NCBI GenBank assembly: GCA_002457675.1
Contig: NTKK01000006.1
Coordinates: 11,742 to 75,741 of the forward strand
DNA from: Bacteroidetes bacterium MED-G17
GTDB taxonomy: Bacteria; Bacteroidota; Bacteroidia; NS11-12g; UBA9320
Direction: 5' to 3'
Length of the DNA: 64,000 nucleotides
The notes beneath the pieces were generated by a model. The model had not been told where the DNA came from, made no database searches, and saw only the letters and a list, made by a program, of their open reading frames with translations. Of this stretch, positions 4,547 through 47,815 are shown piece by piece. Position numbers and translations under genes: made by a program. Each line of letters begins with the position of its first letter. Position 1 is the stretch's first letter.

Positions 4547-4987
4547 ATGAAATTATTTTTCATCTTTGTTACGTTTTGTTTTATGGAGTTTATGGCATGG
4601 TTTACGCACAAATTCATTATGCATGGCTTTATGTGGAGATGGCATAAATCACACCACAGTGTGCACAAACAAGTTTTCGAAAAAAACGACCTATTTGCAG
4701 TAGTATTTGCCCTTGTCTCGGCGGGGCTGATAGTACTTTCAAGCGAAAAAATAATTCCATCAATATTCTTCGAAATCGGTATTGGAGTTTGTCTTTACGG
4801 GGTAGCATACTTTTTGGTTCACGATGTATTTGTTCATCAAAGAATCAAATGGCTTAGAAAGACAAATATTAAATATTTTAAAGCCATGAGAAAGGCGCAT
4901 AAAATTCACCATAAGACATTAACCAAAGATGGGGCAGAGGCGTTTGGCTTCTTATTTGTGCCCAAAAAATATTTGAGAAAGGTATGA
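4547..4987 (+). CDS. crtZ: beta-carotene 3-hydroxylase (fatty acid hydroxylase superfamily)
   Basis: Histidine boxes HKSHHS and HKIHH in a 146-aa membrane protein (WRWHKSHH), typical of CrtZ. Immediately upstream of phytoene synthase. Confidence 0.8.
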   Translation: MKLFFIFVTFCFMEFMAWFTHKFIMHGFMWRWHKSHHSVHKQVFEKNDLFAVVFALVSAGLIVLSSEKIIPSIFFEIGIGVCLYGVAYFLVHDVFVHQRIKWLRKTNIKYFKAMRKAHKIHHKTLTKDGAEAFGFLFVPKKYLRKV

Positions 4988-5829
4988 AAAATGCAATTAA
5001 ATTATACAATGAAGTCTCTCTCGAATCGAGCAAGCTTACAACAGAAAGATACAGTACCTCTTTTTCAGTTGGCATTCGTTTAATTTCTGGTGAATTAAGG
5101 TGGGCTATTTATGCTTTGTATGGTATGGTTCGTTATGCAGACGAAATTGTAGATACCTTTCACAATCAAGATAAAGGTCTTTTGTTAAATGATTTTGAAG
5201 CGCAGACCTATGAAGCAATTGAGCGAAAATTTTCAACCAACCCAATTTTACATGCTTACCAAATGGCACATCATCAATTTTCTATTGATCAAGCGCTAGT
5301 AAAGTCCTTTTTTGAGAGCATGAAGATGGACTTAGAGCAAAAAGTACACGATAAAGATTCATATGATACGTACGTATATGGAAGTGCCGAAGTAGTAGGG
5401 TTGATGTGTTTGCATGTTTTTACCGAGGGGAATAAAAAATTGTTTAATGACTTACTGCCCAACGCTAGAGCCCTTGGTTCGGCCTTCCAAAAAGTAAATT
5501 TTTTAAGAGACCTTAAGAGCGATTTAGAAGAAAGAGGAAGACTGTATTTCCCAAATGTGAACTTCACCAATTTCTCTGATGAAGACAAACAACAAATTAT
5601 TCAAGAAGTAAAAGAAGAGTTCAAGCATGCGTTAAGCGGGATTAAAAAATTGCCTTTATCCTGCAGATTTGGCGTTTATACCGCGTATAAATATTACCTC
5701 AAACTTTTGGTAAAAATCGACAGTAAGCACAAAGAAGAGCTTTTGGAAAAGAGAATTAGAGTGAATAATGCTCAAAAAGTATGGGTGCTTGCCAAAAGTT
5801 TTTCAAGGTACCAGCTAAATCTACTTTAA
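4984..5829 (+). CDS. crtB: phytoene synthase (squalene/phytoene synthase family)
   Basis: Isoprenoid synthase motifs YGMVRYADEIVD and the second Asp-rich region. 281 aa. Start overlaps the crtZ stop by 4 nt. Confidence 0.85.
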   Translation: MKNAIKLYNEVSLESSKLTTERYSTSFSVGIRLISGELRWAIYALYGMVRYADEIVDTFHNQDKGLLLNDFEAQTYEAIERKFSTNPILHAYQMAHHQFSIDQALVKSFFESMKMDLEQKVHDKDSYDTYVYGSAEVVGLMCLHVFTEGNKKLFNDLLPNARALGSAFQKVNFLRDLKSDLEERGRLYFPNVNFTNFSDEDKQQIIQEVKEEFKHALSGIKKLPLSCRFGVYTAYKYYLKLLVKIDSKHKEELLEKRIRVNNAQKVWVLAKSFSRYQLNLL

Positions 5830-8272: not shown

Positions 8273-9328
8273 ATGAGGAAGTTTCTGTTTGTCATTTTTT
8301 GCAGCTTGTTTGCTTTTTGTGATAAGGGCAACAACAAACAAATTAAACTTGAATCGTATGCCAAATATGGTGATTTTTTTATCCTAGCAGATGATCGATT
8401 AATTCAGCATCAAATGAAAGAAACATTTCTGAACGTTTTTTCTGCTGAGGAAGAAAATCTTTTGCCTCCAAAACCTAGAAAATTTTTACCAAGATTTTTG
8501 CCTTTAGATCAAATGGGCAACTTTACTCGACGTTATTTCAATTCGATTATTCTTCTCGATAACAAGTCCAAAGATTATTTTCTTTCACTATTTGATAGGC
8601 AAACAGTTCAAAATCTTTTACAAAAAATAAATGAAAAAAATGCTTTTGGTTTTGTGATAAACAACTTGTGGGCAAAGCCGCAAAAAACACTTATTATCTA
8701 TGCAGAAAATCAAAATTCACTTCTAGAAAAAATAGTTAAAAACCAAGAAAAACTTATCCAATATGTTGAGCAAGCGGAGCTTTCTGTAGGAGAAAATAAA
8801 ATGTTTCCACTCGGGAAGGCGAGAAATTCGAGCTTTATAAAAATGAAGAAGTCGAGAAAATTTGCCTTACCACTACATCCTTATTATCGATTGGCTTTAA
8901 ATAAAAAAGAGATGCTTTGGTATAGAAGAAATTCTAAAAAAATGGATTATGCAATTTGTATTTATGAAGAGCCATTCGCGTCGGAAAGTCAATTTGAATT
9001 GAACTACATTAAAAAAATGCGAAATCAAAAAACCAAAAAATTTTTGAAGGGCCAATTGGACAATACATATGTGGAGATTGATCCCGAGATTGATTGCAGC
9101 TTTACCAAAGAAAATTTTAGTGGAATGCCTTGTTACACCCTAAAAGGTTGGTGGAGTATGAATAATGACTTTATGGCTGGTCCATTTGTTACCCGAACAA
9201 TTTTTGATCAAAAAAATAAACGTGTAATTACCATAGATGGACATTTATACGGACCAGAGGTAGCTAATAAAATTAATCACCTAAGAGAGTTAGAGGTTTA
9301 TATACATACTTTTGAACCAAGTTTATGA
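8273..9328 (+). CDS. DUF4837-like lipoprotein (hypothetical)
   Basis: Lipoprotein signal (LFAFC); about 350 aa, Bacteroidota-specific-looking. ATG directly abuts the upstream stop. Family assigned from memory only. Confidence 0.45.
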   Translation: MRKFLFVIFCSLFAFCDKGNNKQIKLESYAKYGDFFILADDRLIQHQMKETFLNVFSAEEENLLPPKPRKFLPRFLPLDQMGNFTRRYFNSIILLDNKSKDYFLSLFDRQTVQNLLQKINEKNAFGFVINNLWAKPQKTLIIYAENQNSLLEKIVKNQEKLIQYVEQAELSVGENKMFPLGKARNSSFIKMKKSRKFALPLHPYYRLALNKKEMLWYRRNSKKMDYAICIYEEPFASESQFELNYIKKMRNQKTKKFLKGQLDNTYVEIDPEIDCSFTKENFSGMPCYTLKGWWSMNNDFMAGPFVTRTIFDQKNKRVITIDGHLYGPEVANKINHLRELEVYIHTFEPSL

Positions 9329-9891
9329 TTCGCTTGGCAATACTCGCTTCGGGCTCCGGAACCAATGCACAGGCAATAATTGAATATTTTGATGGTCACG
9401 CATCTATTGAAATTTCGGGCGTATATACAAACAATCCTGAGGCGGGTGTAATTAAAAAGTGTCAACAATTAAACATGGATTGTTTTGTTTTTTCAAATGC
9501 TGATTTAAAAAATGATACATTACTTAAATTACTTATTTCTTCACATGTTGAAGGAATTATTCTTGCTGGATTTTTGAGAAAAATTACACCAAATATTCTT
9601 GAAACGTATTCAAATAAAATTATGAATATTCATCCAAGTCTTTTGCCAAAATATGGTGGTAAGGGCATGTACGGAGCGCACGTCCACCATTCAGTGTTGG
9701 CTAATAAGGAAAAAGAAACAGGTATAACCATACATCTTGTTAATGAAAATTATGATGAAGGAGATTACCTATTTCAAAGACGGGTAAAACTTGGTAAGGA
9801 TGAAAGCATAGAATCTATTATAAAAAAGATTTCTAGTTTGGAACATACCTACTATCCCCAAGTCATAGAACGTTTTTTTTTAATTAAATAA
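9325..9891 (+). CDS. purN: phosphoribosylglycinamide formyltransferase
   Basis: MIRLAILASGSGTNAQAI N-terminus; folate-binding HPSLLP...G motif; 188 aa. Confidence 0.9.
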   Translation: MIRLAILASGSGTNAQAIIEYFDGHASIEISGVYTNNPEAGVIKKCQQLNMDCFVFSNADLKNDTLLKLLISSHVEGIILAGFLRKITPNILETYSNKIMNIHPSLLPKYGGKGMYGAHVHHSVLANKEKETGITIHLVNENYDEGDYLFQRRVKLGKDESIESIIKKISSLEHTYYPQVIERFFLIK

Positions 9892-10376: not shown

Positions 10377-12086
10377 TTACTGCAATAGATTTCTTTTATA
10401 GAATGCGTAAGGGCCGCGTTCATAAAGAAATTCAAGTTTAGGATATTGCGACATTTTATGTTGGTCTTTTTTAAGGATGCTTATGTATACTGGTTTATCA
10501 ATTTTACCTGTCAAAAGTCTTTGCCAAATCTCTGAAGAAAAAGCTCCGCGTTTCTCCAAAGGTAAATTACTGTAAGAATTACAATTGTATTTCTGTAAAA
10601 CGTCTTTGCGAATCTGCCATATTTCATCATCCTCACGATAAGATTTATTTCGCGCATAAAAGTTAGGAATATAGGTGGCAAAAGAATGGCTGATAAAATA
10701 GGCATCTTCATTTTGTCGAGCTTTATGAAAAGCCACAAGTTCCTTTTGGCTGTGCGCTTCAATTTTTGGTGCAAAACTGACCAACAACATGGGACAAAAT
10801 ATAGCTACCCAAAAGAACAAGTATTGAAATTTGTGCGCGTATAAAACAAATAAAACTCCGATAAAAAATATCCCTACAATTCCAAATTCCATACCAGTCC
10901 AAGGTCCTTCTAATTGGAGCGCTTCAGTTGTTATTGGGTTGTTGATGAAGTTCGCTATAGTATTTTTAAAAGTTGGATTGTTTCCTACAAGGGACAGTAA
11001 AGAAAGCGCGGCAACGATTATCAAAGAAATTACCCATAAAAGCGAAATTTCTAATTTATTTAATTTAATATTTTTCAATCGGATTGCGGCGAAGTAAGTT
11101 ATGGGGAGATAGGTCATGGAGCTGTAATGCACTATCTTGGTTTTTACCAAACTAAACAAGATCAAAACCACCCAAAAGAATATACGTAGTAAGTTTTCCA
11201 ACAGATATGCTTTATTTCCCTTATCACCCACCTTTTTTGTAAGTCCTCGAAAAGCCAATATAGAGGCAGGAAACATACCAACCAACAAAACCAATGGATG
11301 GTAGAAAAATGGTTGGGCATGGTTGGCAACATTTTTTGAAAAAAGATCTTTTTGTATAGAAATAAAATTTCCTAAAACCTTCGATGGAGATCCGTCATTA
11401 CCCAATAGGTACCACCAAAAAATAACTGAAAGTATAGGCAAAGCTAGGAGCACCAAATGGCTTAAGGCAAAATATCTACGAAAGTTGTTCTGAATTAAAA
11501 TATAAAGCCCCACTAAGCCAATAACTAAAATGGCAACGGGTCCTTTGGTTAGAAAGGCCAAAGCCAGTGAAATGCCCATCAAAAAGAAATAAACATGTTT
11601 CTTGGATGAAGAAATGGCCTGAGAAAGAAAGTATAAAGCAAAAAATATAAATAGGTTGAACCAAGGATCAATAATGCCTGACCTGAAGTATAACTGAGAG
11701 GTGAAACTACCCAAATAAACTAAAACCCACTGCCAAGCCATCTTACTATTGTGGTGTTTTTTACCAAGAAAAAACACAAAGTTGATGGTGGCAATACCTG
11801 CTAAAGCATTCGGTAATCTTGCGGCCCACTCATTTATGCCAAAAATTTTCATGCTTATAGATTGCATCCAAAAAAATAAAGGAGGTTTATCTGAAAAAGG
11901 TAAATAGTCAACGCTCGTTCTCATCCAATTATGGCTAAGCAACATTTCCTTTGCTACAGTAGCAAAGTTTACTTCATCCCAATCAAAAAGGTGAACACGT
12001 CCTAGGAAAAAACCAAAAAATAAAGCTGCAGAAATACTGAGAAAAAAGTGCGGAAATCGCTTAATTACTTTTCTCATGTCGCACAA
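10377..12086 (-). CDS. ArnT/PMT-like membrane glycosyltransferase (GT83/GT39 family)
   Basis: N-terminal region (...DEVNFATVAKEML...FSDKPPLFFWMQSISMKIFGINEWAARLPNALAGI) matches the conserved ArnT / dolichyl-phosphate-mannose mannosyltransferase signature. Polytopic, 569 aa. Confidence 0.8.
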   Translation of the reverse strand: MCDMRKVIKRFPHFFLSISAALFFGFFLGRVHLFDWDEVNFATVAKEMLLSHNWMRTSVDYLPFSDKPPLFFWMQSISMKIFGINEWAARLPNALAGIATINFVFFLGKKHHNSKMAWQWVLVYLGSFTSQLYFRSGIIDPWFNLFIFFALYFLSQAISSSKKHVYFFLMGISLALAFLTKGPVAILVIGLVGLYILIQNNFRRYFALSHLVLLALPILSVIFWWYLLGNDGSPSKVLGNFISIQKDLFSKNVANHAQPFFYHPLVLLVGMFPASILAFRGLTKKVGDKGNKAYLLENLLRIFFWVVLILFSLVKTKIVHYSSMTYLPITYFAAIRLKNIKLNKLEISLLWVISLIIVAALSLLSLVGNNPTFKNTIANFINNPITTEALQLEGPWTGMEFGIVGIFFIGVLFVLYAHKFQYLFFWVAIFCPMLLVSFAPKIEAHSQKELVAFHKARQNEDAYFISHSFATYIPNFYARNKSYREDDEIWQIRKDVLQKYNCNSYSNLPLEKRGAFSSEIWQRLLTGKIDKPVYISILKKDQHKMSQYPKLEFLYERGPYAFYKRNLLQ

Positions 12087-12678
12087 ATATACGTAAGCTA
12101 AAGAAAGAAAATAAAGATATGGAAAGCCCTATCCAGGAACCTACAAAAACATCAATGAGAAAATGTTGAGCCAAAATTACTCTACTGAGCGCAACCAAAA
12201 TAGGAGGAAAAATAAGTGTCCAGGCATAAGGCTTATCTCTAAATGCGAAGGCTAAATTTGTGAAAAATACAAATGCTGCACTGGTATGACCCGATGGGAA
12301 AGAAAATTGACGATTTATTTTTATGTTTTGATGGTATTGGATTTGATCGGCAAAAAAAGCATAAGGCCGGTCAAAATGTGGAAAAACCTTGTGCTTGAGA
12401 AGGTATATGACCAGAAGATTTAATAAAACTGAAACCAGATAGGGTAACAAATTTTTTTTTCTTTTATAAAAAAGAAAAAATACACCTATAAGAAGACCAA
12501 CATAAAACTCTCCAAATAGTGTGATCAAAGCAAAAGTACTTTCAAAAAATCCGTTATAAAAGCTGTTGAAAAATAATACCGCTTCACCTTTTGGAAATAT
12601 CAATATAGACAAACCTATCAATACATTCCACAGCAGAAATGAAAGAAAAAATAGACGATTGCTAATAAGTTCCCGCAA
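12061..12678 (-). CDS. PAP2 family phosphatase (LpxE/LpxF-like lipid phosphatase candidate)
   Basis: PAP2 motifs, including PSGHTSAAF and a later SR...H region. Membrane protein. Its 3' end overlaps the downstream ArnT-like start by about 26 nt. Confidence 0.75.
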   Translation of the reverse strand: MRELISNRLFFLSFLLWNVLIGLSILIFPKGEAVLFFNSFYNGFFESTFALITLFGEFYVGLLIGVFFLFYKRKKNLLPYLVSVLLNLLVIYLLKHKVFPHFDRPYAFFADQIQYHQNIKINRQFSFPSGHTSAAFVFFTNLAFAFRDKPYAWTLIFPPILVALSRVILAQHFLIDVFVGSWIGLSISLFSFFSLRIFVRHEKSN

Positions 12679-12727
12679 AACGCTTCAAAGATGAAAAAAC
12701 TTTGATATTAAATAAATTGTTTTTAAT

Positions 12728-13129
12728 TTGAAACTTTCAGAGGAGCAGATGAATAGGGAAAAACTGGAGTTAGAGTTTGAGGTTAGATCAAGTCCAAGTG
12801 TATTGTTTAACTACCTTTCAACCCCCAGTGGTTTGGTAGAATGGTTTTGTGATGATGTCAATTTGAAAGGTAAAGATAAATTTATTTTTATCTGGGAAGG
12901 CGAAGAAAGAGTTGCGACTTTGCAAAGAAAAGTATCTGGGAAATACATTAAATGGAGCTGGGATGATGAAGAAGAATCAGAATTTTTTGAATTTTCTATA
13001 AACAAAGATGAATTAACTGGAGACATCGCGCTTATTATAACAGATTTTGCTGACGAGGATGAGGTTGAGGAAATGGAATTATTGTGGGAAAGTCAAGTTC
13101 AAGATTTGAGAAATGCATTGGGCGTTTAA
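12728..13129 (+). CDS. START-like / SRPBCC superfamily protein (hypothetical)
   Basis: 133 aa, acidic C-terminus, ...GLVEWFCDDVN... pattern reminiscent of the AHSA1/START-like fold. Assignment tentative. Confidence 0.4.
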   Translation: MKLSEEQMNREKLELEFEVRSSPSVLFNYLSTPSGLVEWFCDDVNLKGKDKFIFIWEGEERVATLQRKVSGKYIKWSWDDEEESEFFEFSINKDELTGDIALIITDFADEDEVEEMELLWESQVQDLRNALGV

Positions 13130-13141
13130 AATCAAAAAAAA

Positions 13142-15633
<2,492 letters not shown>

Positions 15634-15658
15634 TCACGGGGTTCAAAACTAGCCAATG

Positions 15659-16447
15659 TCAAGGAATTTTTTGCTGTTGTGGATGATTTGACAATAATTG
15701 TTTAATACGCTCTAAGTCTTCAGGCGAATCTACGCCATTACTCTCCATTTGGGTTTTAAGCAAAGAGATGACAAAATGGTCTTGAAGCCATCTTAGTTGT
15801 TCCAAACTTTCTGCATTTTCCAAAGGCGCTTCGGGGACATCTACCAATTCAGGAACAATTTCTGCTTGAAAAGCATAAATTCCTATGTGTTTATAAAAAA
15901 TATGATTTGATAGCCATTGTTCTTTTCCCATATTTCTTAAATAAGGTATTACCTGTCGGCTAAAATATAGCGCATCGGCAGTATTTTCATGAAAAATAGT
16001 ACTTACAACTTTCACAACATTTGGAGATTCTAATTCTTCAAGGTTAGAAATTTCTTTTACCAATGTAAGTATTTCCGTTGTTTCATTTTGCTTAAAAAAG
16101 TCAATAATCTTATCTATTTCTTTAGGGTTAATCAAGGGTTCATCACCTTGTAAATTAACCAAAATATCAAACCCCTTCCCCTCGTTTTCTAAATGTTCCA
16201 GTACTTCAGCACAACGTTCTGTTCCATTATTGTGGTCTGGTGAGGTCATTATGACTTCACCTCCAAATTTGACCACTGTATTAAAAATTCGTTCATCATC
16301 TGTAGCGACTATAACTCTGCTAGCTTTTGATGCAGCAGCTTTTTCATATACATGCTGTATCATTGTTTTTCCTACAATGTCTGCCAAAGGCTTTCCTGGA
16401 AATCTTTGGGAATTATATCTTGCTGGTATGACAATTAAGCTATTCAT
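15659..16447 (-). CDS. kdsB: 3-deoxy-manno-octulosonate cytidylyltransferase (CMP-Kdo synthetase)
   Basis: IVIPARYNSQRFPGKPL N-terminal motif, 262 aa. Confidence 0.9.
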   Translation of the reverse strand: MNSLIVIPARYNSQRFPGKPLADIVGKTMIQHVYEKAAASKASRVIVATDDERIFNTVVKFGGEVIMTSPDHNNGTERCAEVLEHLENEGKGFDILVNLQGDEPLINPKEIDKIIDFFKQNETTEILTLVKEISNLEELESPNVVKVVSTIFHENTADALYFSRQVIPYLRNMGKEQWLSNHIFYKHIGIYAFQAEIVPELVDVPEAPLENAESLEQLRWLQDHFVISLLKTQMESNGVDSPEDLERIKQLLSNHPQQQKIP

Positions 16448-17327
16448 GATTTTTTGGAATCCAATCTAAGACCAAACCTACAAATGACGAAACTAAGGTT
16501 ATTAAACTAAAAATAAGTGCTGCAGTAATACCCAATGTGCTATTGATTTGGAAAGTTTGCGCTAATTTTTCGAAAATTAATTCTCGTGCACCCATGCCAC
16601 CTAAAAAAACTGGAATTGCAGTTGCCACTGAAGATATCCAAAAAATTATTGCTGATGCTAGAGACTTATATCCCAAACTCCAAACTATGGAATAAAAACT
16701 AAGACCCTGTAACAGTTGAATAAGTAAAGACCATAAAAACCCTAAACCAAATGAGATGCCTTGTTTGAAAAATATTTTAGTGCCAATAAAAGAAAAAATT
16801 AGAACCAATATGGCTGAGAATATCCATACACTTTTTGGATACCCTAAGTTGAAAAAAGTAAGGCCGGTTAGGATTAAAATAAGTAAAGCCAAAAGCCCTA
16901 AAAGCCTATCCAAAAGTAATGCTGAGACCAAGGTCTTTTTTTTGTATTTGTGAATTCTATTGATTTGTAAAATTTTATATGCATCACCACCTATACCACC
17001 AGGTAAGAACAAATTGTAGGCCATCCCGATATAGTAAAGCAAAAGATTTTTTGGGAAAGTAATCTCTGCTTTGTGATTTTTCAGAATATAACCTAATCGT
17101 GCTGCAGACGCCATTTGTGAAGTGTTGAACAAAAAAAAAGCGCATACAACATAATGCCACTTTACATTCTTCATTTTTTCATAAATGGAGGACAAATCTA
17201 CATGTTGAAATACATACCAAAACGCAAATAAAGAAACCACAATTTTTCCAATTGTGAGGAAAACATTGTTACTCTTCAAGGGTATGAATTTTGCGTATGT
17301 TGTAAGTTTTTTTCTGCTGAGATTCAA
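16440..17327 (-). CDS. flippase-like domain membrane protein (lysylphosphatidylglycerol synthase TM-region family)
   Basis: About 8 predicted TM helices. N-terminus resembles UPF0104/MprF-flippase-like proteins. The annotated start overlaps the upstream GT2 by 59 nt, so the true start may be downstream. Confidence 0.55.
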   Translation of the reverse strand: MNLSRKKLTTYAKFIPLKSNNVFLTIGKIVVSLFAFWYVFQHVDLSSIYEKMKNVKWHYVVCAFFLFNTSQMASAARLGYILKNHKAEITFPKNLLLYYIGMAYNLFLPGGIGGDAYKILQINRIHKYKKKTLVSALLLDRLLGLLALLILILTGLTFFNLGYPKSVWIFSAILVLIFSFIGTKIFFKQGISFGLGFLWSLLIQLLQGLSFYSIVWSLGYKSLASAIIFWISSVATAIPVFLGGMGARELIFEKLAQTFQINSTLGITAALIFSLITLVSSFVGLVLDWIPKNHE

Positions 17328-18204
17328 AGTATGTGCGCATCAACAATTCTGAAACAATTCCAAAAATAATAAGTTGAAATCCAGCAAGGATTAGAAGAAC
17401 TCCTAAAATCAATATTGGTCTTCCCCAGATATCTTGACCAAATATTTTAAGGATAAGTAAATACAGATTGATTAAAATGCCTAAACCAAAAATCACGAAA
17501 CCCAAATTGCCAAAAAGATGCATAGGTTTTCTTAAATATTTTTTCATAAAAACCATCAAAATAAGGTCACTAATTACCTTAAATGTCCGGTTTAGCGAAT
17601 ATTTGGATTTTCCATGAATTCTAGGGTGATGTTTTACAGGTACCTGTAGAATTCGCGCTCCTTGTAAACTCGCTAATACAGGAATAAATCTGTGCAACTC
17701 TCCATACAAATCAAGTTTTTTAGCAAAATATGATTTGAAAATCTTTAACGTGCAACCGTAATCCCGAATATGTACATCTGTTGCATTTCTTATTATACCA
17801 TTGGCAATTTTAGAAGGAATTTTACGTAAAAACATACCATCTTTTCGGTTAATTCTCTCTCCTGCAATAAGATCAAAAGGTTCATTCTCAATTTTTTCAA
17901 GGAGTATAGGAATATCGCTCGGGTCATTTTGTAAGTCTCCATCAAGTGTGACAATATATTCCCCAATACTCTCATCAATGCCGGCTTGCATAGCCGTACT
18001 TTGACCATAATTTTTGGTAAACTCCAAAACCTTCATACCGTCAAACGCATATTCAAGAAGTTTATCTACTGTAAGGTCTGTTGAACCATCATCCACAAAA
18101 ATTACTTCGTGATCAATTTGTGATAAGTTTTTTTTGAGCGATTCTATGAGAGGAATAATATTATCTTCTTCATTCATAACTGCTATAACCACTGATAATT
18201 TCAA
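17269..18204 (-). CDS. family 2 glycosyltransferase, polyprenol-phosphate sugar synthase type (ArnC/DPM1-like)
   Basis: VVIAVMNEEDNI...VDDGSTD...DGDLQ (DXD) GT2 catalytic core with C-terminal TM helices; 311 aa. Confidence 0.85.
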   Translation of the reverse strand: MKLSVVIAVMNEEDNIIPLIESLKKNLSQIDHEVIFVDDGSTDLTVDKLLEYAFDGMKVLEFTKNYGQSTAMQAGIDESIGEYIVTLDGDLQNDPSDIPILLEKIENEPFDLIAGERINRKDGMFLRKIPSKIANGIIRNATDVHIRDYGCTLKIFKSYFAKKLDLYGELHRFIPVLASLQGARILQVPVKHHPRIHGKSKYSLNRTFKVISDLILMVFMKKYLRKPMHLFGNLGFVIFGLGILINLYLLILKIFGQDIWGRPILILGVLLILAGFQLIIFGIVSELLMRTYFESQQKKTYNIRKIHTLEE

Positions 18205-18223
18205 ACCAAAATCAAAGTAACAA

Positions 18224-19843
18224 TTATTGGTTTAGATAATATCTAGGTTCTTCGTTTTCGTTTTCCACAACTTTGCTTTGTTTATGTCTTAATTTTTTGA
18301 ATTTTACCAAAGCCATCTTTTTGTTTTCAAATTTTCTAACAAATCTTAAATAGTAAGTAACATCCTCTGGATACCTTATTATGTCTTCAGGGACGATGTA
18401 AAAGCGAACGGTGTCAAAATTCTCCGTTCGAGTTTTGGTTGGTTGATTTCGAAGTGTTGTAATGTACCAATTCATGCTCAATTCAATATTACAATTCATC
18501 ATTTCTAATTCTTTGTTTTTGGTAATTTCTGCTATGCGTTTTGCCAAAAGTTTTTCACTTGGCATGCTTATGTGACTTTTTCTTAGAGGCAATGCAAAAA
18601 CATTTAGGAAAAGTTTACCCATTAAAAAAAACATGACCAAATCCATAAGGACATGCCCATTCCGAAAATAATATAAATATGAACCCCAAAAAATCAGCAT
18701 CATAAGCAAGGCAATTTGGTAATTAACTGGATTCATTGAGTAGACGGGATGGCCCAGAGAACCACACAGAAGTAAAAAAAATACAATTATCAGAAGTGTA
18801 AAAAGTGCTTTTTTTAAAATTCTGGATCGGAATAAACTCAAATCCATAGCTTCAATTATAGGGATGCATAAGAGCGGAAGCAGCGCAAAAACATATCGTG
18901 CTCTATAATCAGGAGATAACCAATAAGGAAATAAATTGAACAAGGCTACCCAAGCCAAAAGTGCGTGGTCAGAAGTTCTGAACTTGTGCCTAAATTTCTT
19001 GCCAAAGAAGAAAAAGGTAAGAAAAATACTAGGTAAAAAGTCCACAAGTATTTTAAAAGGAAATTCAACAAGATGTTTTATTGTTTGCCACAAGGTTTTG
19101 TTTACCATGGTCCTTTGGCTAGACTCTTTAAATAAAACATGCATTAAATCCACAAGTGAGCCGTTTAGAGAGAAAAACCAAAAATATCCTATGATTGCGA
19201 GAGTAAATAAACCAAAAAATAAAAAATGTTCAGGTTTAAATATCTTTTTAAATTGTTTACCACCAAAAAATAAAGTGAATAAAGAGATGCTTTGAAAAAC
19301 CAAACTTGGTAGTCCTTTCATCATAAATCCAATGCCACAAAAAAGATAAGAGAATGCAAAAATTTGCCGGTATTTTTTTCGTTTCAAAAAATAAAAAGAC
19401 CAGTAGATTTGGTTGAAAACCAACCAACTAAAAGGAATATCAATATGCCCTAAAAGAGAACTGAAAACCAAAAAATTTCCACTAATTAGTAAGCTGGCTC
19501 CAAGTAAAATAGCCTTTACTTTGTTTTGATAAATTTTTAAACCCAAAAAGTATAATTGCGCGCTAAAACCCAAAATAGCAATGTATGAAGGCAATCTAAT
19601 CACCCATTCTTTTGTGCCAAATATTTTGATAAATAAAGCCAATAACCAATTATAAAGTGGGGGTTTATTGAGGTAGGGAAGACCATTCAAGTGTGGATTT
19701 AGCCAATTGTGGTCTAAAAGCATATGAAATGAAACTAAAGCCCTTATTGGCTCATCTGCCCAAAGGGGCAATAGGTGTAAATTTAAGCCAAAAGCAAAGA
19801 TGCCAACAACCAAGAAAAAACAAGCTAGTAGATGTGCTTTCAA
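18224..19843 (-). CDS. ArnT/PMT-like membrane glycosyltransferase (GT83/GT39 family), second paralogue
   Basis: ...WADEPIRALVSF...LNGLPYLNKPPLYNWLLALFIKIFG signature (PMT_2-like), polytopic, 539 aa. Confidence 0.75.
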   Translation of the reverse strand: MKAHLLACFFLVVGIFAFGLNLHLLPLWADEPIRALVSFHMLLDHNWLNPHLNGLPYLNKPPLYNWLLALFIKIFGTKEWVIRLPSYIAILGFSAQLYFLGLKIYQNKVKAILLGASLLISGNFLVFSSLLGHIDIPFSWLVFNQIYWSFYFLKRKKYRQIFAFSYLFCGIGFMMKGLPSLVFQSISLFTLFFGGKQFKKIFKPEHFLFFGLFTLAIIGYFWFFSLNGSLVDLMHVLFKESSQRTMVNKTLWQTIKHLVEFPFKILVDFLPSIFLTFFFFGKKFRHKFRTSDHALLAWVALFNLFPYWLSPDYRARYVFALLPLLCIPIIEAMDLSLFRSRILKKALFTLLIIVFFLLLCGSLGHPVYSMNPVNYQIALLMMLIFWGSYLYYFRNGHVLMDLVMFFLMGKLFLNVFALPLRKSHISMPSEKLLAKRIAEITKNKELEMMNCNIELSMNWYITTLRNQPTKTRTENFDTVRFYIVPEDIIRYPEDVTYYLRFVRKFENKKMALVKFKKLRHKQSKVVENENEEPRYYLNQ

Positions 19844-19892: not shown

Positions 19893-21752
19893 ATGACAAA
19901 ATATGTACTTCTTTCTTTTTTGTTTGTTTTTATGAGTCAAATTGTTGGTGCACAAAAATTTTCACTTAAACAGACTCAAAAAAGCTACCCAAAACTAAAA
20001 AACATGCGTTTAGCTGATTTACCTTTGGATGTTTTATATAAGGCAGAGGAAATGTCAAAGCATATGCATTTTGCTGAAAATAAAAAGAAAGTAGATGCCT
20101 TAAGAAAAAGAAGATTTGTCAATAAATTAGACAAGACTTACAGTGAAACTACCCAATCTATTACACCACAACTGGGGGTGAATTTTAACGGTCATCCAAC
20201 TGGATCAAGAGGCATTCCCAATGACAACAATATGGCCATCTCAAATGACGGTTGGATAGTAAGTGTTCAAAACAGTATTGTTCGTGTTTTCAACCCAAAC
20301 GGTGAGGCGCAACTTATTCGTTCTCTAGAATTTATGGCCTCCGGACAAGTTGGAAGACTTGAGAGATCCTTTGATCCTAAAATAATGTATGATCCACATG
20401 CCGATAGGTTCATTATGGTTTTCTTAGAAGGAAATACCAGCACAACGTCTAAAATAATTGTAGGATTCAGTCAAAGTAACTTACCCACTGGACAATGGAG
20501 TTTTTATGCTCTAGATGGAAGCCCATTTGGCGATAAACGTTGGAGCGATTATCCAATAATTGCCTTTAACGAGAGTGACTTGTTCATAACGGTAAATATG
20601 CTAGAAGATGGTGGTTCATGGATAGAAGATTTTGCAGAGAGTGTTATATGGCAGGTTTCATTGAGAGATGGATACAATGGGATGGAACAACTTTCGACCA
20701 ATCTCCTTAGTGATATTACCTTTAATGAAAAATATATTTGGAGTGTTTGTCCAGTTAAATGTGGAAGCGCACCCAATAGGGATGAAACCATGTATTTTTT
20801 ATCTGTTCGGCCAGGCGATTTAAAAAATGATACACTTTTTTTACATACGTTATCTGGTAATGTGAGAAGCGAGTCAAAATATCAAGTAGAAGTCTTTAAA
20901 AGTCCTTTAAAATATGGTATTCCACCCTCAGGTTTTCAGCCAAATGGTGGAAAAGGTTTGCATACCAATGATGCTCGAGTTCTTGACGCCTTTTTTGAGC
21001 AAAACAAGATTCAATATGTACAAACAACCAACATCATCGACAAAAACATGCCAGGCGTTTATCACGGAATTTTGGACTTGGATAAGAGAGAAATACAAGC
21101 AAACTATATATATTCAGATACGTTTGACTATGCATACCCTAGTATCGCTTTTGCAGGTAATCATAAATTCCCTAACGCCAGTGTAATTACATTTTCTCAC
21201 TCATCAGAGCTAAACTTTCCTGGTACAAGTGCTATTTTCTATAATCAAATCGATGGTTATGAAGGAATTTATTCAAAGATTTTAAAAGTTAAAGAAGGAA
21301 AAAGGCTAATAAATTATAGTACTAATGATTCCAATGTAAGGTGGGGTGATTATACAAGTATTCAGACTAAATACGATCAAGAAGGCATTCTTTGGCTTAG
21401 TGGGTCTTTTGGCGATGAAAATCAACCATCCGGATATGGTACATGGTTGGCTCAACTTTCAACTAATCCTAAACTTCATGTTCAATTAAATGAAGGTGAT
21501 ATGCAACTTTTTCCTAATCCAAGTAATGCTATGGTAAATCTGCAAGTTTTTTTAAATGCGCAAAAAACACTTAAAGTTACTGTGTGTAGTCAACTTGGTC
21601 AAAAAGTGTACGAATCGTCTCAGGTAACAACTTCACCTGGGCTTTTCAATTACCAGCTCAGTACAGACTTTTTAGCTAAAGGACTATATATTTTATCTAT
21701 TTCCGAACTTAGTGGGAAGCCAATTATCAGTAAAAAGCTTATCGTAAGGTAA
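19893..21752 (+). CDS. secreted protein with T9SS (Por) C-terminal sorting domain
   Basis: Signal peptide. C-terminal about 80 aa (LFPNPSNAMVNLQVF...GLYILSISELSGKPIISKKLIVR) matches the T9SS type-A CTD pattern. Confidence 0.65.
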   Translation: MTKYVLLSFLFVFMSQIVGAQKFSLKQTQKSYPKLKNMRLADLPLDVLYKAEEMSKHMHFAENKKKVDALRKRRFVNKLDKTYSETTQSITPQLGVNFNGHPTGSRGIPNDNNMAISNDGWIVSVQNSIVRVFNPNGEAQLIRSLEFMASGQVGRLERSFDPKIMYDPHADRFIMVFLEGNTSTTSKIIVGFSQSNLPTGQWSFYALDGSPFGDKRWSDYPIIAFNESDLFITVNMLEDGGSWIEDFAESVIWQVSLRDGYNGMEQLSTNLLSDITFNEKYIWSVCPVKCGSAPNRDETMYFLSVRPGDLKNDTLFLHTLSGNVRSESKYQVEVFKSPLKYGIPPSGFQPNGGKGLHTNDARVLDAFFEQNKIQYVQTTNIIDKNMPGVYHGILDLDKREIQANYIYSDTFDYAYPSIAFAGNHKFPNASVITFSHSSELNFPGTSAIFYNQIDGYEGIYSKILKVKEGKRLINYSTNDSNVRWGDYTSIQTKYDQEGILWLSGSFGDENQPSGYGTWLAQLSTNPKLHVQLNEGDMQLFPNPSNAMVNLQVFLNAQKTLKVTVCSQLGQKVYESSQVTTSPGLFNYQLSTDFLAKGLYILSISELSGKPIISKKLIVR

Positions 21753-43014: not shown

Positions 43015-43102
43015 AATTAAGTTATGTCACTCATATTTTGATGATTTATTTTGTTTTAATGCAAATTTGATATTACTTTTACAAATCGTACATTACTCAC
43101 CT

Positions 43103-46100
43103 ATGAGCTCATTTATACATTCTTCCAAAAAAATTTTCCGACAGGTAAAATTAATTTTTGTTTTTTCAGTTCTTGCTATTTGTTTTTCTCCAAAGAAGAC
43201 GCATGGCACACATATGATGGGTGCAGACATCACATATGAGTGCGTAGACACCATGAAGTTCAAAATTATCTTCAAGGTTTATCGAGATTGTAGAGGTATC
43301 GGCATGTCATCTGTAAGAGGAACCATTACTGGTTGTGGTAAATCATTAAGTATCAGCCCAACTAGGGTAAGTATAGCAGAAAAAACACCTTTGTGTGCCA
43401 CTGCCAAGAGTAGATGTTCTCCCGCAAATACTTATGGAACAGGAAAGGGAATAGAAGAACACCGGTTTGAATTGATAGTTGATTTCAATAAATCTCCGTA
43501 TAGTACGTTCAAAAATTGCGAATGGATAAGGTTCTCAACTGGACAGTGTTGTCGTAATGGCGCTATAACAACAGGTGTTGGAGGAAATTTTTATACAGAT
43601 GCTTTATTGAATTTGAAAAAAGCGCCCTGTAACAATTCTCCTAAAATGACAACTGACCCAATCGCATTTTTATGTTGTAATCAACCGTTCTATTATAACA
43701 ATGGCGCAGTTGATTTGAAGGATGGTGATTCGCTGAGCTTTCGGTTTTCAGATCCGCTGAGTGGCACCAATGTGGCCATCGGTTATACTTCCCCATGGAG
43801 TAAAAAGTACCCCTTTACACCATACTGCCCCGGCCAACCAGGCAAAGTGGATTGCGATCCTATACCAACGGCAGATCCACCCATTGGTATTTATTTAGAT
43901 TCATTGACGGGAGATTTGGTTCTCACACCTACCAAGTGCGATGAGGTAACTGTGGTGGTTTTGGAAATGAAAGAATATCGAAAGAACAAAAATGGTAAGT
44001 ATGAACATATAGGCACTACGCGCAGAGATATGCAGTTTTGGGTAAACTCCTGCCCTGGAAATTATCCGCCCGTTTTGAAACCACTGGCGGGAAAAAATAA
44101 GTTCGCATACACTGTTTGTGCCGGCCAACAAGTCTGTTTCAAGGTTTCTGCTACAGACAAAATATTCGTGCCCAAAGGTCAAACCTCAGGCAAATCGGAT
44201 ACAGTTGTACTTACGACCAACCTATCGCAAAGCCCATCACCAATTCCCGGGGCAACGTGGAAAAAAACCAACGGTCCTCCCAAAACTCGTTACGAAGAAT
44301 ATGAGTTCTGCTGGACTCCTACGCAGGGAGACGCTAGAAGTTTACCTTATTATTTCACCGTAACTGCTAAAGATGATGCTTGTCCAATTCCGGCTATTTC
44401 AACCCGTTCCTTTAGTATAAAAGTCAATCGACGGGCCGAAGCAGACAGAAAAATTACCAAACTAGCTTGCGGTAGAGTTGCTATAGAAAGTAAAAAAGAC
44501 AATTTGTTTGAAGGATCACCTAACTATGCTTGGTCTTTAAAGGATTCAACAGGAAAGGTATTAAGAAGAACCTCAGGTTATTTTGAAAGTACCGGAACGC
44601 CTGTTTTCAGCAAAGGACGGATTGATACAATCAAGTTTAATTATGAAGGAAAATATATCATTGAGCATGAAATCAACAACAAGTTTAACTGCCCAACAGT
44701 TTATAAAGATACAGTTATAATTCCGCCAGTATTCAATGTAGATTTAAGTTTACAGAATGATACGTTTATATGTTTCGGAGATTCCTTGACTTTAGTACCT
44801 AGAGAAGCAAATGGTAAAGCTCCTTACTCATACCAATGGGGTCTTCCCAATTTTACAGGTGCAGACACCAACCAAAGCTTTACAGTGAATGCGCCTTTAG
44901 ATGGTTGGGATACAGCTACACTTTATGCTGTTGATGCGCTAGGTTGTAAAGCTAGCGATTCAGTAAATGTTTTTTTACGGGAGAATCCCGAAGTAGATTT
45001 GGGTCCAGATGTAAGACTTTGTACTTACGATGATTATATCATTAAGTCTCAAATTGACTCTGGTTTTTGGATCAATCCTTTTGACAGCGTGTCTTATAAT
45101 ACTGGCGATACTTTAATCAAGACTTGGTATTATAATAATGTTCAAACTTCTGATAGTACTGACAATCTTCTCGCAACAAAAGAGGGAATATACATTCTTC
45201 AAGTCTCTGATAGTACTTCATGTTTTGGTATGGATACTTTGGAAATTGTCATGAATGATACGGTGAAAGCGTTTGCTGGATTAGATGAAATTCATTGTTG
45301 GGATGAAGAAGTGAAATTGGTTGCTAATTATCTAGATACGGCAAATAATAGTAAAAGTGGTAGAGTTATTTGGAGACAAGAACCAACAGGCACGTTCGTT
45401 AGTGATTTGGATACGGTTGAATTCAATATAGGCGCCAAGGATGATCCGTTTGCGAGTAAAGATTTCTTCTATAGTTTGTTCCTAGAAATTACAGAAGATA
45501 CAGTGAGTTGCTCTGACATAGATACGGTTTTATTTTCCATGGACCCACTCCCTAAACTCACGATGCCAAATAACTTAAGTGTTTGTTTCGATGAGCTGGA
45601 TATTGATTTGAGAAGTCAGTCTTATACGCCTAAAGACTTCAATAATGGGTATTGGTATGTCGAAGGACATCCTAATTGGATCAACAACTTTGAGGTGCTG
45701 GTTTTAGACAGCTTCAGAGACCCTAATAATAAAAGCTGTGTAAAGGCAATTTATCGATTCAAAGATCCATCGAGTAGACTTAAAGCCTGCGAGAATACTG
45801 ACAGTTTTGAAATTTGTGTAAATCCACTTCCAAGGGTGGAAGCAATCCCAGGTGATTATTGCCAAGCAGTTGGTACAATCAATCTAACAACAGATCACAT
45901 ATTGCGTCCAGCTAACCCAGATTTTGGTTTGGTAAACCAATGGAAATGTCTAGACTGTAAAGGTTTTGATGAAACTAAAATTCTCACTGAGCAAATCTTA
46001 GGCGGGGGTGCACAGTATCGTCACTTTTTAAACGTAGCTCCTAGTATCATGGATTTGGGGACAAATGACGATGTAACACTTACGCTCGAATATACTTTTC

Positions 46101-47815
46101 AAGACATCAATGGATGTCTGAATAAAGACACGGTAGATTTTACGATAACACGGTTACCAACCATTGCATTTGATGCTTTTCCAAGCTTGTGTTTTGATGA
46201 TGGCGCGATAAGTTTAAAAAATATAAGCAACTCTAGCCCTTCTTACGGAGAGTGGTCTTGTGTTGATCAGGCAGGTTATGCCAATTGCAATCAATTAGGA
46301 GGTATCTTAAATGGGGATACAATTGTTACCAATTTTGATCCAACTTTTATCAATACTAAGAGATCGTTTTTGATGCGCTTTACGGCATCTATTAAGGGCT
46401 GTAGCATAAGTAAAGATACCCAGCTTGTAATCAATGGACTTCCTTTGATTAACTTAACGAGCCCAAGTGCTAGTGGACAAACAACACCATTCTGTGAAAG
46501 TGATAATCCGATAGACTTGACTGCTATTCCAAGCACGGGTGTTTGGAGTACAGCAAATGGCGAGTCTGGCTTGATAGGTAACCAGTTTGATCCAACACAA
46601 GCTCAAATAGGCACTACCAAATTGATTTATGACTTTATTGACGGTGCTACTGGATGTGCTGCAAATGATTCATTGTACATCAAAATAGATCCACAGCCTT
46701 ATGCAAATATTAATACAATACCAGATACTTGCGTTAATGCAGATGGCTCGGCAATAACTTTCACAGCGACTGGAAACTTAACAAATGTCGATCAGAGTAC
46801 TTGGTTTGTAGTAGATGAAGATGGGATTCAAGTCCCGTTTAACATAGTAGATTTAGATAAAATTACCTTTGATTATACACCACTCAACAAAACTACCAAA
46901 CTATATTATTTAATCATTGATTACAACCTTGGCTCTTCTGTTTGTCCAGTGAATTTCTTCCCAACGGATTCTGTAACTATACATCCTCGTCCAGAGCTAG
47001 ATATCATACCAGATGATCCTAACGGTTGTGAACCTTGGACTGTAAATTATAGCTTGAACATAAAAAATGAAATTGATCCTGGTACATCAGTTTTTGACTG
47101 GGATTTCAACAATGGGCAAGGAAGCTCAAATTTGGAAAATCCAAGTTTTACTTTTGATGAAATTGGAAATAACGATGTGGGTTTAACAGTTACTACTATT
47201 CATGGATGTGATGCCTCCTTTACTTCTCAAGCGACAGTTTATCCTAATCCAATAGCCGATTTTACGCCAGACCCAGATAACTTTACAACAGCAGCATTGC
47301 CAAAATTCACCTTCGAAGACCAGTCAACTGTCGACGGTACCGCTGGCAGCTTTATTGAACTTTATTCTTGGGATTTTGGAGATCCATTTGCCACAGATGA
47401 TGTATCTTCTGAGCAAAATACGCTGTACTGGTATCCTGCAGATACTGGTAGATATAACGTAAGCTTAGAGGTTACTACAAATCACGGATGTAAAGGGGCC
47501 ATTACGAAAGAGGTAATCATAGGGCCGGATATGATTATTTACATTCCAAATGCATTTTCACCAAATGGTGGTGGAGTTTTAGACAATGAAGACTTCCATG
47601 TAAAGATAAAATCGGGTACTTATACCAGTTTTAATATTCAAATTTTTAATAGATGGGGAGAAATTATGTGGACGGCAGATGATCCAAATGAAGGCTGGGA
47701 TGGTACTTATAAAAATAAACCCGTTAAGCAAGATGTTTACAGTTATTTAGTAAAAGTAACTAGTTTAGGTAATGAGGAGTTTACCTATACAGGAACCATT
47801 ACTTTACTGAGATAA
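43103..47815 (+). CDS. giant secreted adhesin-like protein with PKD-like repeats and gliding-motility-associated (T9SS type B / CHU_C) C-terminal domain
   Basis: Start trimmed to ATG 43103, ahead of the signal peptide (...IFVFSVLAICFSP). Cys-rich N-terminal region; several PKD-like modules (WDFNNGQGSS, YSWDFGDP). C-terminal YIPNAFSPNGGGVLDNEDFHV...FNRWGEIMW...WDGTYKNKPVKQDVYSYLVKV matches the TIGR04131-type CTD. Confidence 0.8.
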   Translation: MSSFIHSSKKIFRQVKLIFVFSVLAICFSPKKTHGTHMMGADITYECVDTMKFKIIFKVYRDCRGIGMSSVRGTITGCGKSLSISPTRVSIAEKTPLCATAKSRCSPANTYGTGKGIEEHRFELIVDFNKSPYSTFKNCEWIRFSTGQCCRNGAITTGVGGNFYTDALLNLKKAPCNNSPKMTTDPIAFLCCNQPFYYNNGAVDLKDGDSLSFRFSDPLSGTNVAIGYTSPWSKKYPFTPYCPGQPGKVDCDPIPTADPPIGIYLDSLTGDLVLTPTKCDEVTVVVLEMKEYRKNKNGKYEHIGTTRRDMQFWVNSCPGNYPPVLKPLAGKNKFAYTVCAGQQVCFKVSATDKIFVPKGQTSGKSDTVVLTTNLSQSPSPIPGATWKKTNGPPKTRYEEYEFCWTPTQGDARSLPYYFTVTAKDDACPIPAISTRSFSIKVNRRAEADRKITKLACGRVAIESKKDNLFEGSPNYAWSLKDSTGKVLRRTSGYFESTGTPVFSKGRIDTIKFNYEGKYIIEHEINNKFNCPTVYKDTVIIPPVFNVDLSLQNDTFICFGDSLTLVPREANGKAPYSYQWGLPNFTGADTNQSFTVNAPLDGWDTATLYAVDALGCKASDSVNVFLRENPEVDLGPDVRLCTYDDYIIKSQIDSGFWINPFDSVSYNTGDTLIKTWYYNNVQTSDSTDNLLATKEGIYILQVSDSTSCFGMDTLEIVMNDTVKAFAGLDEIHCWDEEVKLVANYLDTANNSKSGRVIWRQEPTGTFVSDLDTVEFNIGAKDDPFASKDFFYSLFLEITEDTVSCSDIDTVLFSMDPLPKLTMPNNLSVCFDELDIDLRSQSYTPKDFNNGYWYVEGHPNWINNFEVLVLDSFRDPNNKSCVKAIYRFKDPSSRLKACENTDSFEICVNPLPRVEAIPGDYCQAVGTINLTTDHILRPANPDFGLVNQWKCLDCKGFDETKILTEQILGGGAQYRHFLNVAPSIMDLGTNDDVTLTLEYTFQDINGCLNKDTVDFTITRLPTIAFDAFPSLCFDDGAISLKNISNSSPSYGEWSCVDQAGYANCNQLGGILNGDTIVTNFDPTFINTKRSFLMRFTASIKGCSISKDTQLVINGLPLINLTSPSASGQTTPFCESDNPIDLTAIPSTGVWSTANGESGLIGNQFDPTQAQIGTTKLIYDFIDGATGCAANDSLYIKIDPQPYANINTIPDTCVNADGSAITFTATGNLTNVDQSTWFVVDEDGIQVPFNIVDLDKITFDYTPLNKTTKLYYLIIDYNLGSSVCPVNFFPTDSVTIHPRPELDIIPDDPNGCEPWTVNYSLNIKNEIDPGTSVFDWDFNNGQGSSNLENPSFTFDEIGNNDVGLTVTTIHGCDASFTSQATVYPNPIADFTPDPDNFTTAALPKFTFEDQSTVDGTAGSFIELYSWDFGDPFATDDVSSEQNTLYWYPADTGRYNVSLEVTTNHGCKGAITKEVIIGPDMIIYIPNAFSPNGGGVLDNEDFHVKIKSGTYTSFNIQIFNRWGEIMWTADDPNEGWDGTYKNKPVKQDVYSYLVKVTSLGNEEFTYTGTITLLR

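Follow-up and report, generated by a model that had tools for sequence, protein, structure and literature searches.

Two gene modules in the region

We examined a 64,000-nt stretch of contig NTKK01000006.1 (GCA_002457675.1) of Bacteroidetes bacterium MED-G17, hereafter referred to as the window, and focused on the region 10377-19843, which carries two glycosyltransferase modules. In module 1 (10377-13129), the gene of a PAP2-type phosphatase is coupled to that of an ArnT-like GT-C glycosyltransferase (GT-C1) and is accompanied by a START_2 gene. In module 2 (16440-19843), the gene of a second ArnT-like enzyme (GT-C2) is followed by those of an ArnC-like GT2 glycosyltransferase and a UPF0104 membrane protein. 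The gene identities were obtained from a listing of the open reading frames (ORFs) combined with hidden Markov model (HMM) scans against Pfam and NCBIfam, and all nine genes named by a first-pass annotation of this DNA were found with the coordinates and families that it had given. For the gene neighborhoods, 80 metagenome loci were fetched with an alignment of GT-C1 and 80 genome loci with an alignment of GT-C2, and all the window proteins were mapped onto both sets; individual loci are designated by L numbers, and, except where the full set of 80 is named, the denominators given hereafter refer to the testable loci.

The region is best explained as a lineage-specific juxtaposition of two independently conserved modules. 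Two observations across the 80 + 80 loci carry this explanation. One is that the full arrangement was found again only in L007, the closest relative (60% identity). The other is that, outside L007, the GT-C1 and GT-C2 families never occur within 8-10 kb of each other. The first-pass annotation had taken the region for a single island and had itself made this claim depend on conservation of the genes as a unit in relatives; the synteny found here goes against it.

The two GT-C enzymes are paralogous, as had been proposed (27% identity over 259 aa, E 8e-20). GT-C1 is encoded on the minus strand at 10377-12077, counted from an ATG (566 aa; the longest ORF extends to a TTG at 12086), and matches PMT_2 with 78 bits. 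The PAP2 gene (12061-12678, minus strand; Pfam PAP2, 70 bits) lies directly upstream, and its stop codon at 12061-12063 is located 17 nt within GT-C1, counted from the ATG at 12077, which bears out the previously noted overlap. The same arrangement, a PAP2 gene directly upstream of a GT-C1 homologue on the same strand, was found in 31 of the 66 testable loci, where the overlaps are mostly 1-8 nt.

The PAP2 motifs KX6RP, PSGH and SRX5HX3D are intact: among 20 homologues, K95, R104, P105, P128-H131, R166, H172 and D176 are invariant, and S165 is conserved in at least 90%. The best match of the PAP2 family profile in the PDB is LpxE of Aquifex (6EBU; 97.6 bits, E 7.4e-27), followed among the other PAP2 structures by PgpB of B. 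subtilis (61.6 bits, 36 below LpxE) and PgpB of E. coli (39.6 bits). The score against the NCBIfam model of the H. pylori-type LpxE is only 16 bits. By profile and motifs, the protein can be regarded as an LpxE-like lipid phosphatase, nearer to LpxE than to other PAP2 subfamilies and with a predicted activity on lipid A; the LpxE-like character assigned to it in the first pass is thus upheld.

For the GT-C1 family profile (A2), ArnT (5EZM) is the sole match in the PDB (E 2.7e-23), and the invariant residues D37/E38, K67, D140 and Y321 correspond to D55/E56, K85, D158 and Y345 of ArnT. GT-C2 (18224-19843, minus strand; PMT_2, 59 bits) also has ArnT as the sole match of its family in the PDB and keeps all five catalytic and undecaprenyl phosphate-binding residues, D30, K60, D135, R244 and Y317 (D55, K85, D158, R270 and Y345 of ArnT). 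Its length of 539 aa is counted from a TTG, as in the NCBI entry PDH52343.1, and other gene callers place the start at 19771. Both enzymes have the GT-C build, with a multi-pass N-terminal domain and a small C-terminal periplasmic domain, and are closest to ArnT; PMTs are not their closest relatives, so that they do not fall into the PMT/GT39 group. Neither is ArnT proper, since GT-C1 and GT-C2 score 94 and 66 bits, respectively, against the ArnT equivalog NF009784, the cut-off of which is 567. From these likenesses, GT-C1 is predicted to be an ArnT/RgtF-like glycosyltransferase that depends on a polyprenyl-phosphate sugar.

Three kinds of partner genes were found around the PAP2→GT-C pair in the GT-C1 loci. 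One is START_2, which in the window (12728-13129, plus strand; PF19569, 123 bits) is divergent from the PAP2 gene across a gap of 49 nt and encodes an SRPBCC-type protein with no signal peptide. It adjoins the PAP2→GT-C pair in 11 of the 26 testable loci, and it accompanies the pair also in L170 and L171 despite their differing outer flanks. START_2, which the first pass had listed merely as an item between the modules, is therefore a conserved accessory partner of the pair. The loci concerned are L089, L093-L095, L101, L113, L126, L127, L132, L141, L145, L170 and L171; START_2 is there placed divergently, directly upstream, or 1.5-2.4 kb upstream of the pair, and the loci without it usually carry a short GT2 gene upstream instead. 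Another partner is this short GT2 (about 248 aa), found within the module in 31 GT-C1 loci, the best NCBIfam matches of which are AglJ, PpgS and dolichyl-phosphate hexose transferase; the orders among the relatives are GT2→PAP2→GT-C, GT2→GT-C and PAP2→GT-C→GT2. The last is a gene for the LptF/LptG permease of lipopolysaccharide (LPS) export (Pfam, 271 bits), which lies beside START_2, PAP2 and GT-C1 in seven loci (L093, L095, L101, L113, L127, L131 and L132). In L113 and L132, the order START_2→LptF/G→PAP2→GT-C on one strand is operon-like. No LptF/G gene was found in the window.

A 402-aa membrane-anchored protein with a weak CehA/McbA metallohydrolase match (47 bits, below the cut-off) was also seen directly upstream of GT-C1 or its short GT2 in L103, L104, L106, L120, L157 and L158. 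Its gene occurs in the orders CehA/McbA-like→GT2→GT-C, CehA/McbA-like→GT-C and GT2→CehA/McbA-like→GT-C. An adjacent PAP2 gene is missing from all six loci (in L120, a weakly PAP2-like ORF occurs some 2 kb upstream); the protein may be a replacement hydrolase.

In module 2, the GT2 gene (17269-18204, minus strand) was found downstream of GT-C2 in 42 of the 76 testable loci, and the UPF0104 gene downstream of the GT2 in 36 of 41. The carriers of this triad are Flavobacteriales-like metagenome-assembled genomes (MAGs), Chitinophagaceae, Sphingobacteriales, Cytophagales and Lentimicrobiaceae, and the same order is also present in Hydrogenimonas urashimensis (Campylobacterota). Arcticibacter, Daejeonella, Pararcticibacter and Hymenobacter are cultured Bacteroidota with the triad (L034, L045, L046, L049 and L066). 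The triad GT2 orthologues in other Bacteroidota are unusually well conserved, being 56-82% identical (mostly 59-70%), against only 29-39% for the adjacent GT-C proteins (60% in L007). The GT2 aligns over its full length with ArnC, residues 2-306 with residues 9-313 (E 6.5e-43), and also matches the GtrB protein sll0501 (E 3e-28); it keeps the C-terminal two-helix membrane hairpin of the ArnC/GtrB architecture. Its score against the ArnC equivalog is 172 bits, with a cut-off of 529. The protein can accordingly be read from its alignment as an ArnC/GtrB-like polyprenyl-phosphate glycosyltransferase, as the first pass had read it.

The third member of the triad, UPF0104/PplT (LPG_synthase_TM, PF03706; 112 bits against a cut-off of 33.4), is encoded on the minus strand at 16440-17240 from a GTG (266 aa), and its ORF can be extended to 17327. 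Since its profile gave no match among the PDB sequences, a fold comparison was used. The AlphaFold2 model has a pLDDT of 92.7, and its six best Foldseek matches in the PDB are all MprF (E 7e-4 to 3e-3, TMq 0.68-0.75), with nothing besides MprF above a TM of 0.27. The protein, of 266-295 aa, consists of PF03706 only and has no C-terminal aminoacyl-phosphatidylglycerol (aminoacyl-PG) synthase domain, so that it is not MprF proper. The MprF-type transmembrane fold ascribed to it in the first pass is nevertheless what the model gives, and the protein is a candidate flippase for a polyprenyl-phosphate sugar. No flippase of the GtrA or ArnE/F families was found in the module 2 operon, the third gene of which is this PF03706 protein.

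Two further genes occur repeatedly near the triad. One, for an NDP-sugar epimerase/dehydratase (an extended SDR of 321 aa, below all the NCBIfam cut-offs), lies within 1-3 genes of the triad in 15 loci, mostly of Sphingobacteriales, and suggests a modified nucleotide sugar there; this epimerase type (c9) was not found in the window. The loci include L026, L033, L034, L045, L046, L048, L049, L052, L065, L070, L072, L076, L079 and L083. The other is divergent from GT-C2 in 16 of the 80 loci, including loci with different outer flanks, and encodes a protein with the C-terminal domain (CTD) of the type IX secretion system (T9SS). In the window, this protein (19893-21752, plus strand) has a signal peptide, a domain of about 520 aa and a Por_Secre_tail. 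The domain is highly conserved; in a Pfam scan of 11 orthologues, only Por_Secre_tail was found, and sequence and profile searches against the PDB gave only weak matches (E 0.02-1.1), within the C-terminal sorting domain. A link between this neighbor and GT-C2 is possible.

In MAGs of Bacteroidales (L028-L041 and others), a lone GT-C2 homologue stands between two genes that, by their sequences, look SUI1-like and MscS-like. A displacement of the missing partners by a GtrA-like gene was considered for these loci and rejected: the neighbors c13, c10 and c3, judged by reading their sequences with no family search, look like a lipid kinase, a SUI1-like and an MscS-like protein, respectively, and not like Gtr components.

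Neighboring genes and the chromosomal setting

Between the two modules lie pyrG, kdsB and an acyltransferase gene. The identities of kdsB (CMP-Kdo synthetase; 15659-16447, minus strand) and pyrG (CTP synthase; 13963-15582, minus strand) are secure, both being over their equivalog cut-offs (TIGR00466, 238 bits against 155; TIGR00337, 785 bits against 463). The ATG of kdsB overlaps the stop codon of UPF0104 by 8 nt, and kdsB is therefore co-transcribed with module 2 in the MED-G17 lineage. It adjoins the triad only in L007, and it was found independently upstream of a GT-C2 homologue in L069; pyrG is close to either module only in L007 and L141. The general claim that kdsB and pyrG are integral parts of the system, which the first pass had made by placing them in its logic, was rejected on these counts: pyrG is a housekeeping, lineage-specific neighbor, and the kdsB link is likewise lineage-specific.

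The acyltransferase (13142-13966, plus strand) had been described as PlsC-like. An acyltransferase it is, with a more specific resemblance to the N-terminal (O-acyltransferase) domain of OlsF (NCBIfam, 132 bits) and to GlsA (102 bits), both below the cut-offs; these are lyso-aminolipid O-acyltransferases of ornithine/glycine lipid synthesis. Its homologue was found in none of the 80 GT-C1 loci and, among the 80 GT-C2 loci, only in L007, so that it is a mere neighbor outside both modules. A second acyltransferase gene is located at 55828-57114 (minus strand).

The G+C content is 0.32-0.37 in the region and 0.30-0.39 over the window, without anomaly, and housekeeping genes flank the region: purN(-like), panB, purA, relA/spoT, fur, yidC and recQ. 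An Rfam scan, which included the tRNA models, found no RNA family at the gathering score anywhere in the window; an ARAGORN tRNA scan and a repeat search were not part of it. A horizontally acquired island was therefore rejected, and the window is an ordinary chromosome of a marine lineage. Besides the NCBI MAG "Bacteroidetes bacterium MED-G17", numerous contigs of marine metagenomes encode proteins identical to those of the window. In a scan for sigma-70 promoters and terminators, fewer sites were found than in shuffled sequence, a count that is uninformative because the promoters of Bacteroidota deviate from the sigma-70 consensus. Elsewhere, the window encodes a PKD/CHU_C surface protein of 1570 aa (43067-47815, plus strand), an HMG-CoA synthase (57213-58676, plus strand), by which a mevalonate pathway is suggested, and carotenoid genes, namely a SQS_PSY-family gene (4984-5829, plus strand) and a lycopene cyclase gene (52383-53075, minus strand).

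Proposed mechanism and its alternatives

The genes most likely form two modules that both attach sugars to LPS from the periplasmic side. In module 1, once LPS/lipid A has reached the periplasmic face by flipping, a lipid A phosphate (1 or 4′) would be taken off by the LpxE-like PAP2 protein, and the coupled GT-C1 would then move a sugar from a polyprenyl-phosphate sugar to the freed position or to a nearby site of the LPS. In the relatives, the donor would be made by the dedicated short DPM1/PpgS-like GT2 of the same cluster. In module 2, polyprenyl phosphate would receive a sugar from the ArnC-like GT2 on the cytoplasmic side, the product would be flipped by the stand-alone UPF0104 protein of the MprF type, and GT-C2 would pass the sugar to a periplasmic acceptor. 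Module 2 thus reads best as a periplasmic glycosylation system of three components, with UPF0104 in the position occupied elsewhere by GtrA or ArnE/F. Its acceptor is probably LPS, because kdsB is joined to the operon in the window, in L007 and in L069; this is a hint only, and the conserved divergent T9SS-CTD gene makes a protein target possible. To the reading as a whole, two periplasmic glycosylation modules with polyprenyl-phosphate-sugar donors, module 1 acting on lipid A/LPS and module 2 probably on LPS, we assign a probability of about 55%.

As for the sugar, no arnA-, arnB- or arnD-like gene and no deacetylase gene was found in the window, and therefore a neutral or acidic sugar is favored as likelier than an aminosugar of the arn-like, polymyxin type. 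The sole formyltransferase gene, at 9325-9891, was considered as ArnA-type and rejected, as it scores 141 bits against the PurN model and 43 against that of ArnA. The first pass had likened the region to the arn pathway; the design of making, flipping and transferring a sugar is retained here, and the aminosugar modification is not.

Several findings weigh against the proposed reading of the two modules. No evident equivalent of ArnT R270 is seen for GT-C1 in the alignment, 19 of the 66 GT-C1 loci have neither an adjacent PAP2 gene nor a GT2, and no orthologue of the short GT2 exists in the window, which leaves module 1 there without a dedicated GT2. LpxE of Aquifex is reported to be promiscuous and to take also undecaprenyl pyrophosphate (C55-PP) and phosphatidylglycerol phosphate (PGP) as substrates, and therefore an LpxE-like fold leaves the substrate unfixed. 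On the side of module 2, what the UPF0104 partners known to date flip are end products, either phospholipids or glycolipids, and not polyprenyl-phosphate sugars. The Bacteroidales homologues of GT-C2 stand alone, and in L043 and L050 GT-C2 is kept while the GT2 and UPF0104 are missing from an otherwise syntenic block (compare L024). The kdsB link exists in only a few lineages. The gene identities, folds, conserved catalytic residues, gene overlaps and synteny counts were observed directly, and from them the substrates (acceptor and donor), the sugar, the flippase activity and the sequence of the reactions are inferred.

Since the dedicated short GT2 is missing from the window, GT-C1 probably obtains its donor from one of the two ArnC-like GT2s encoded there. 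The second of these (60994-61944, minus strand), which matches the ArnC HMM along its entire length with 178 bits and shares 33% identity with the triad GT2, is possibly the donor synthase for GT-C1. Its gene lies between lipoate-protein ligase-like and amidohydrolase genes, with no GT-C or flippase gene adjoining.

Three other explanations were weighed. The fold and residues of the ArnT type, the ArnC-like build of the GT2, the close coupling of PAP2 and GT-C, and the LptF/G adjacency disfavor all of them. The PAP2 protein might be a general phosphatase for undecaprenyl pyrophosphate or PGP that recycles the carrier lipid, while the GT-C enzymes, in the manner of Gtr systems, decorate the O-antigen, the LPS core or some other glycan and not the dephosphorylated position of lipid A. 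Among PAP2 proteins of such size are PgpB and YodM, which come next after LpxE in the PDB, and SepP, a weak NCBIfam match; the triad suits the three-component logic of Gtr, and 35 of the 66 GT-C1 loci have no adjacent PAP2 gene. ArnT-type enzymes, however, release polyprenyl monophosphate, which makes a pyrophosphatase unnecessary. Tight translational coupling in 31 loci, the gene order resembling rgtE-lpxE-rgtF and the 36 bits by which LpxE outscores PgpB favor a link at the level of the substrate, and the LptF/G adjacency points to LPS itself. We consider this explanation unlikely, although it is the strongest of the three.

Less probable still is that one or both GT-C enzymes are PMT-like O-glycosyltransferases acting on secreted or T9SS proteins, for example on the divergent T9SS-CTD neighbor; the Pfam matches to PMT and PMT_2 speak for it, as does the persistence of that neighbor in 16 loci despite changed outer flanks, and the closer kinship of both enzymes to ArnT speaks against it. 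We give slightly less credence yet to the idea that, as in HexSDF and GpgSDF, what the GT2 and UPF0104 make and flip is itself the end product, a glycolipid (for example a glycosyl-diacylglycerol or a glycosyl-phospholipid), and that GT-C2 is functionally unrelated. UPF0104 proteins do partner lipid glycosyltransferases in HexSDF of C. difficile and GpgSDF of P. aeruginosa (PMC12713373), and MprF is a promiscuous scramblase (PMC11980842). The triad GT2, however, shows the complete ArnC/GtrB architecture with its C-terminal transmembrane hairpin, whereas GpgS is a soluble GT4; no deacetylase gene lies nearby, and the order GT-C→GT2→UPF0104 persists across phyla and in 36 of 41 loci.

The reading of two LPS-directed modules can be carried further, though with less confidence. 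Stand-alone UPF0104/PplT proteins might be dedicated polyprenyl-phosphate-sugar flippases of a widespread bacterial GT-C/GT2/UPF0104 system and, separately, START_2, PAP2 and GT-C, sometimes with LptF/G, might be the machinery that swaps a lipid A phosphate for a sugar in Bacteroidota, as for the galacturonic acid (GalA)-bearing lipid A of Echinicola. This joint proposal is tentative; if it is true, LPS remodeling would gain a new accessory in the form of a START-like protein of the cytoplasm. To our knowledge, the genes for lipid A glycosylation have not yet been assigned in Bacteroidota, though chemical work has detected glycosylated lipid A in marine members. Concrete candidates for such genes are the PAP2→GT-C pair and its partners (GT2, START_2 and LptF/G), and the GT-C→GT2→UPF0104 triad provides a tractable bacterial case for the flipping of polyprenyl-phosphate sugars by an MprF-type domain, which has so far only been predicted, for archaea. 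LPS sugar modifications alter the charge of LPS and its immune recognition.

Comparison with known systems

A literature search on ArnT/PAP2 lipid A modification in Bacteroidetes and on LPG_synthase_TM retrieved nothing. In Echinicola, a marine genus of Bacteroidota, lipid A that carries GalA was identified by chemical means, and no genes were assigned to it (PMC8707317). The closest counterpart of module 1 is the rhizobial paradigm, in which LpxE/LpxF dephosphorylates lipid A and RgtF/RgtD then adds GalA from a bactoprenyl-phosphate-GalA donor made by RgtE (PMC7663294, PMC9393093); the published rgtE-lpxE-rgtF cluster is OCA5_c19730-50 (PMC7663294). In these systems (rgtE-lpxE-rgtF and lpxF/rgtD of Rhizobium, Mesorhizobium and Oligotropha; LpxE of Aquifex), as in module 1, a PAP2 lipid A phosphatase stands beside an ArnT-like GT-C, following the scheme of dephosphorylation and then glycosylation. 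In the relatives of module 1, the likeness extends to a GT2 for a polyprenyl-phosphate sugar and to the same order, GT2→PAP2→GT-C. Within the window, the adjacency and co-transcription of PAP2 and GT-C were found, with the 17-nt overlap, and a dedicated GT2 in the cluster was not. Module 1 differs from the rhizobial clusters in belonging to Bacteroidota, in its extra partners START_2 and sometimes LptF/G, and in its low identity to ArnT and LpxE.

Module 2 resembles the Arn pathway (ArnC, ArnE/F and ArnT) in combining an ArnC-like GT2 with an ArnT-like GT-C that has the conserved residues, and in the logic of making, flipping and transferring a sugar periplasmically. However, its proteins score far under the equivalog cut-offs for ArnC and ArnT, ArnA, ArnB and ArnD are missing, and UPF0104 is not an SMR-type ArnE/F. 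With the Gtr-type systems (GtrA/GtrB/GtrC; CsbB/GtcA/YfhO), it shares a GT2 polyprenyl-phosphate-sugar synthase, a small flippase and a GT-C transferase; in place of a GtrA-family protein, which module 2 does not have, UPF0104 occupies the position in the operon. The UPF0104 protein itself shares PF03706 and the MprF transmembrane fold with MprF/PplT (YbhN), HexF, GpgF and HpnL. It differs from them in having no aminoacyl-PG synthase domain and in having as partners a polyprenyl-phosphate-type GT2 and a GT-C, not a phospholipid-modifying enzyme. A flippase role has been proposed for the UPF0104 proteins of HexSDF and GpgSDF (PMC12713373) and for those of the PplT family (bioRxiv 2022.03.11.483950).

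The nearest match in family composition is archaeal. In the archaeal neighborhood described by Makarova et al., UPF0104 occurs together with a PMT/STT3-like protein and a GT2 resembling AglD, and a flippase role was predicted for UPF0104 (PMC5898192); the same theme includes Agl22 and Agl23 of Haloarcula hispanica (PMC11182771). This archaeal triad (arCOG00899, UPF0104; arCOG00897, AglD-like GT2; arCOG00563, PMT/STT3-like) is a conserved neighborhood of the same three families as module 2, whereas module 2 is bacterial, its carrier is presumably undecaprenyl and not dolichyl, its GT-C is ArnT-like, and the archaeal target is S-layer/protein glycosylation. The first-pass statement that a different flippase family is used holds in that the protein is of the UPF0104/MprF type; its novelty does not, in view of these precedents (PMC5898192, PMC12713373). 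In sum, the observation behind that annotation is confirmed and its interpretation is in part supported: both modules follow known designs and not a new principle, and the START_2 partnership, the LptF/G adjacency and the cross-phylum bacterial GT-C→GT2→UPF0104 operon are the new points, of modest value, that they add to these designs.

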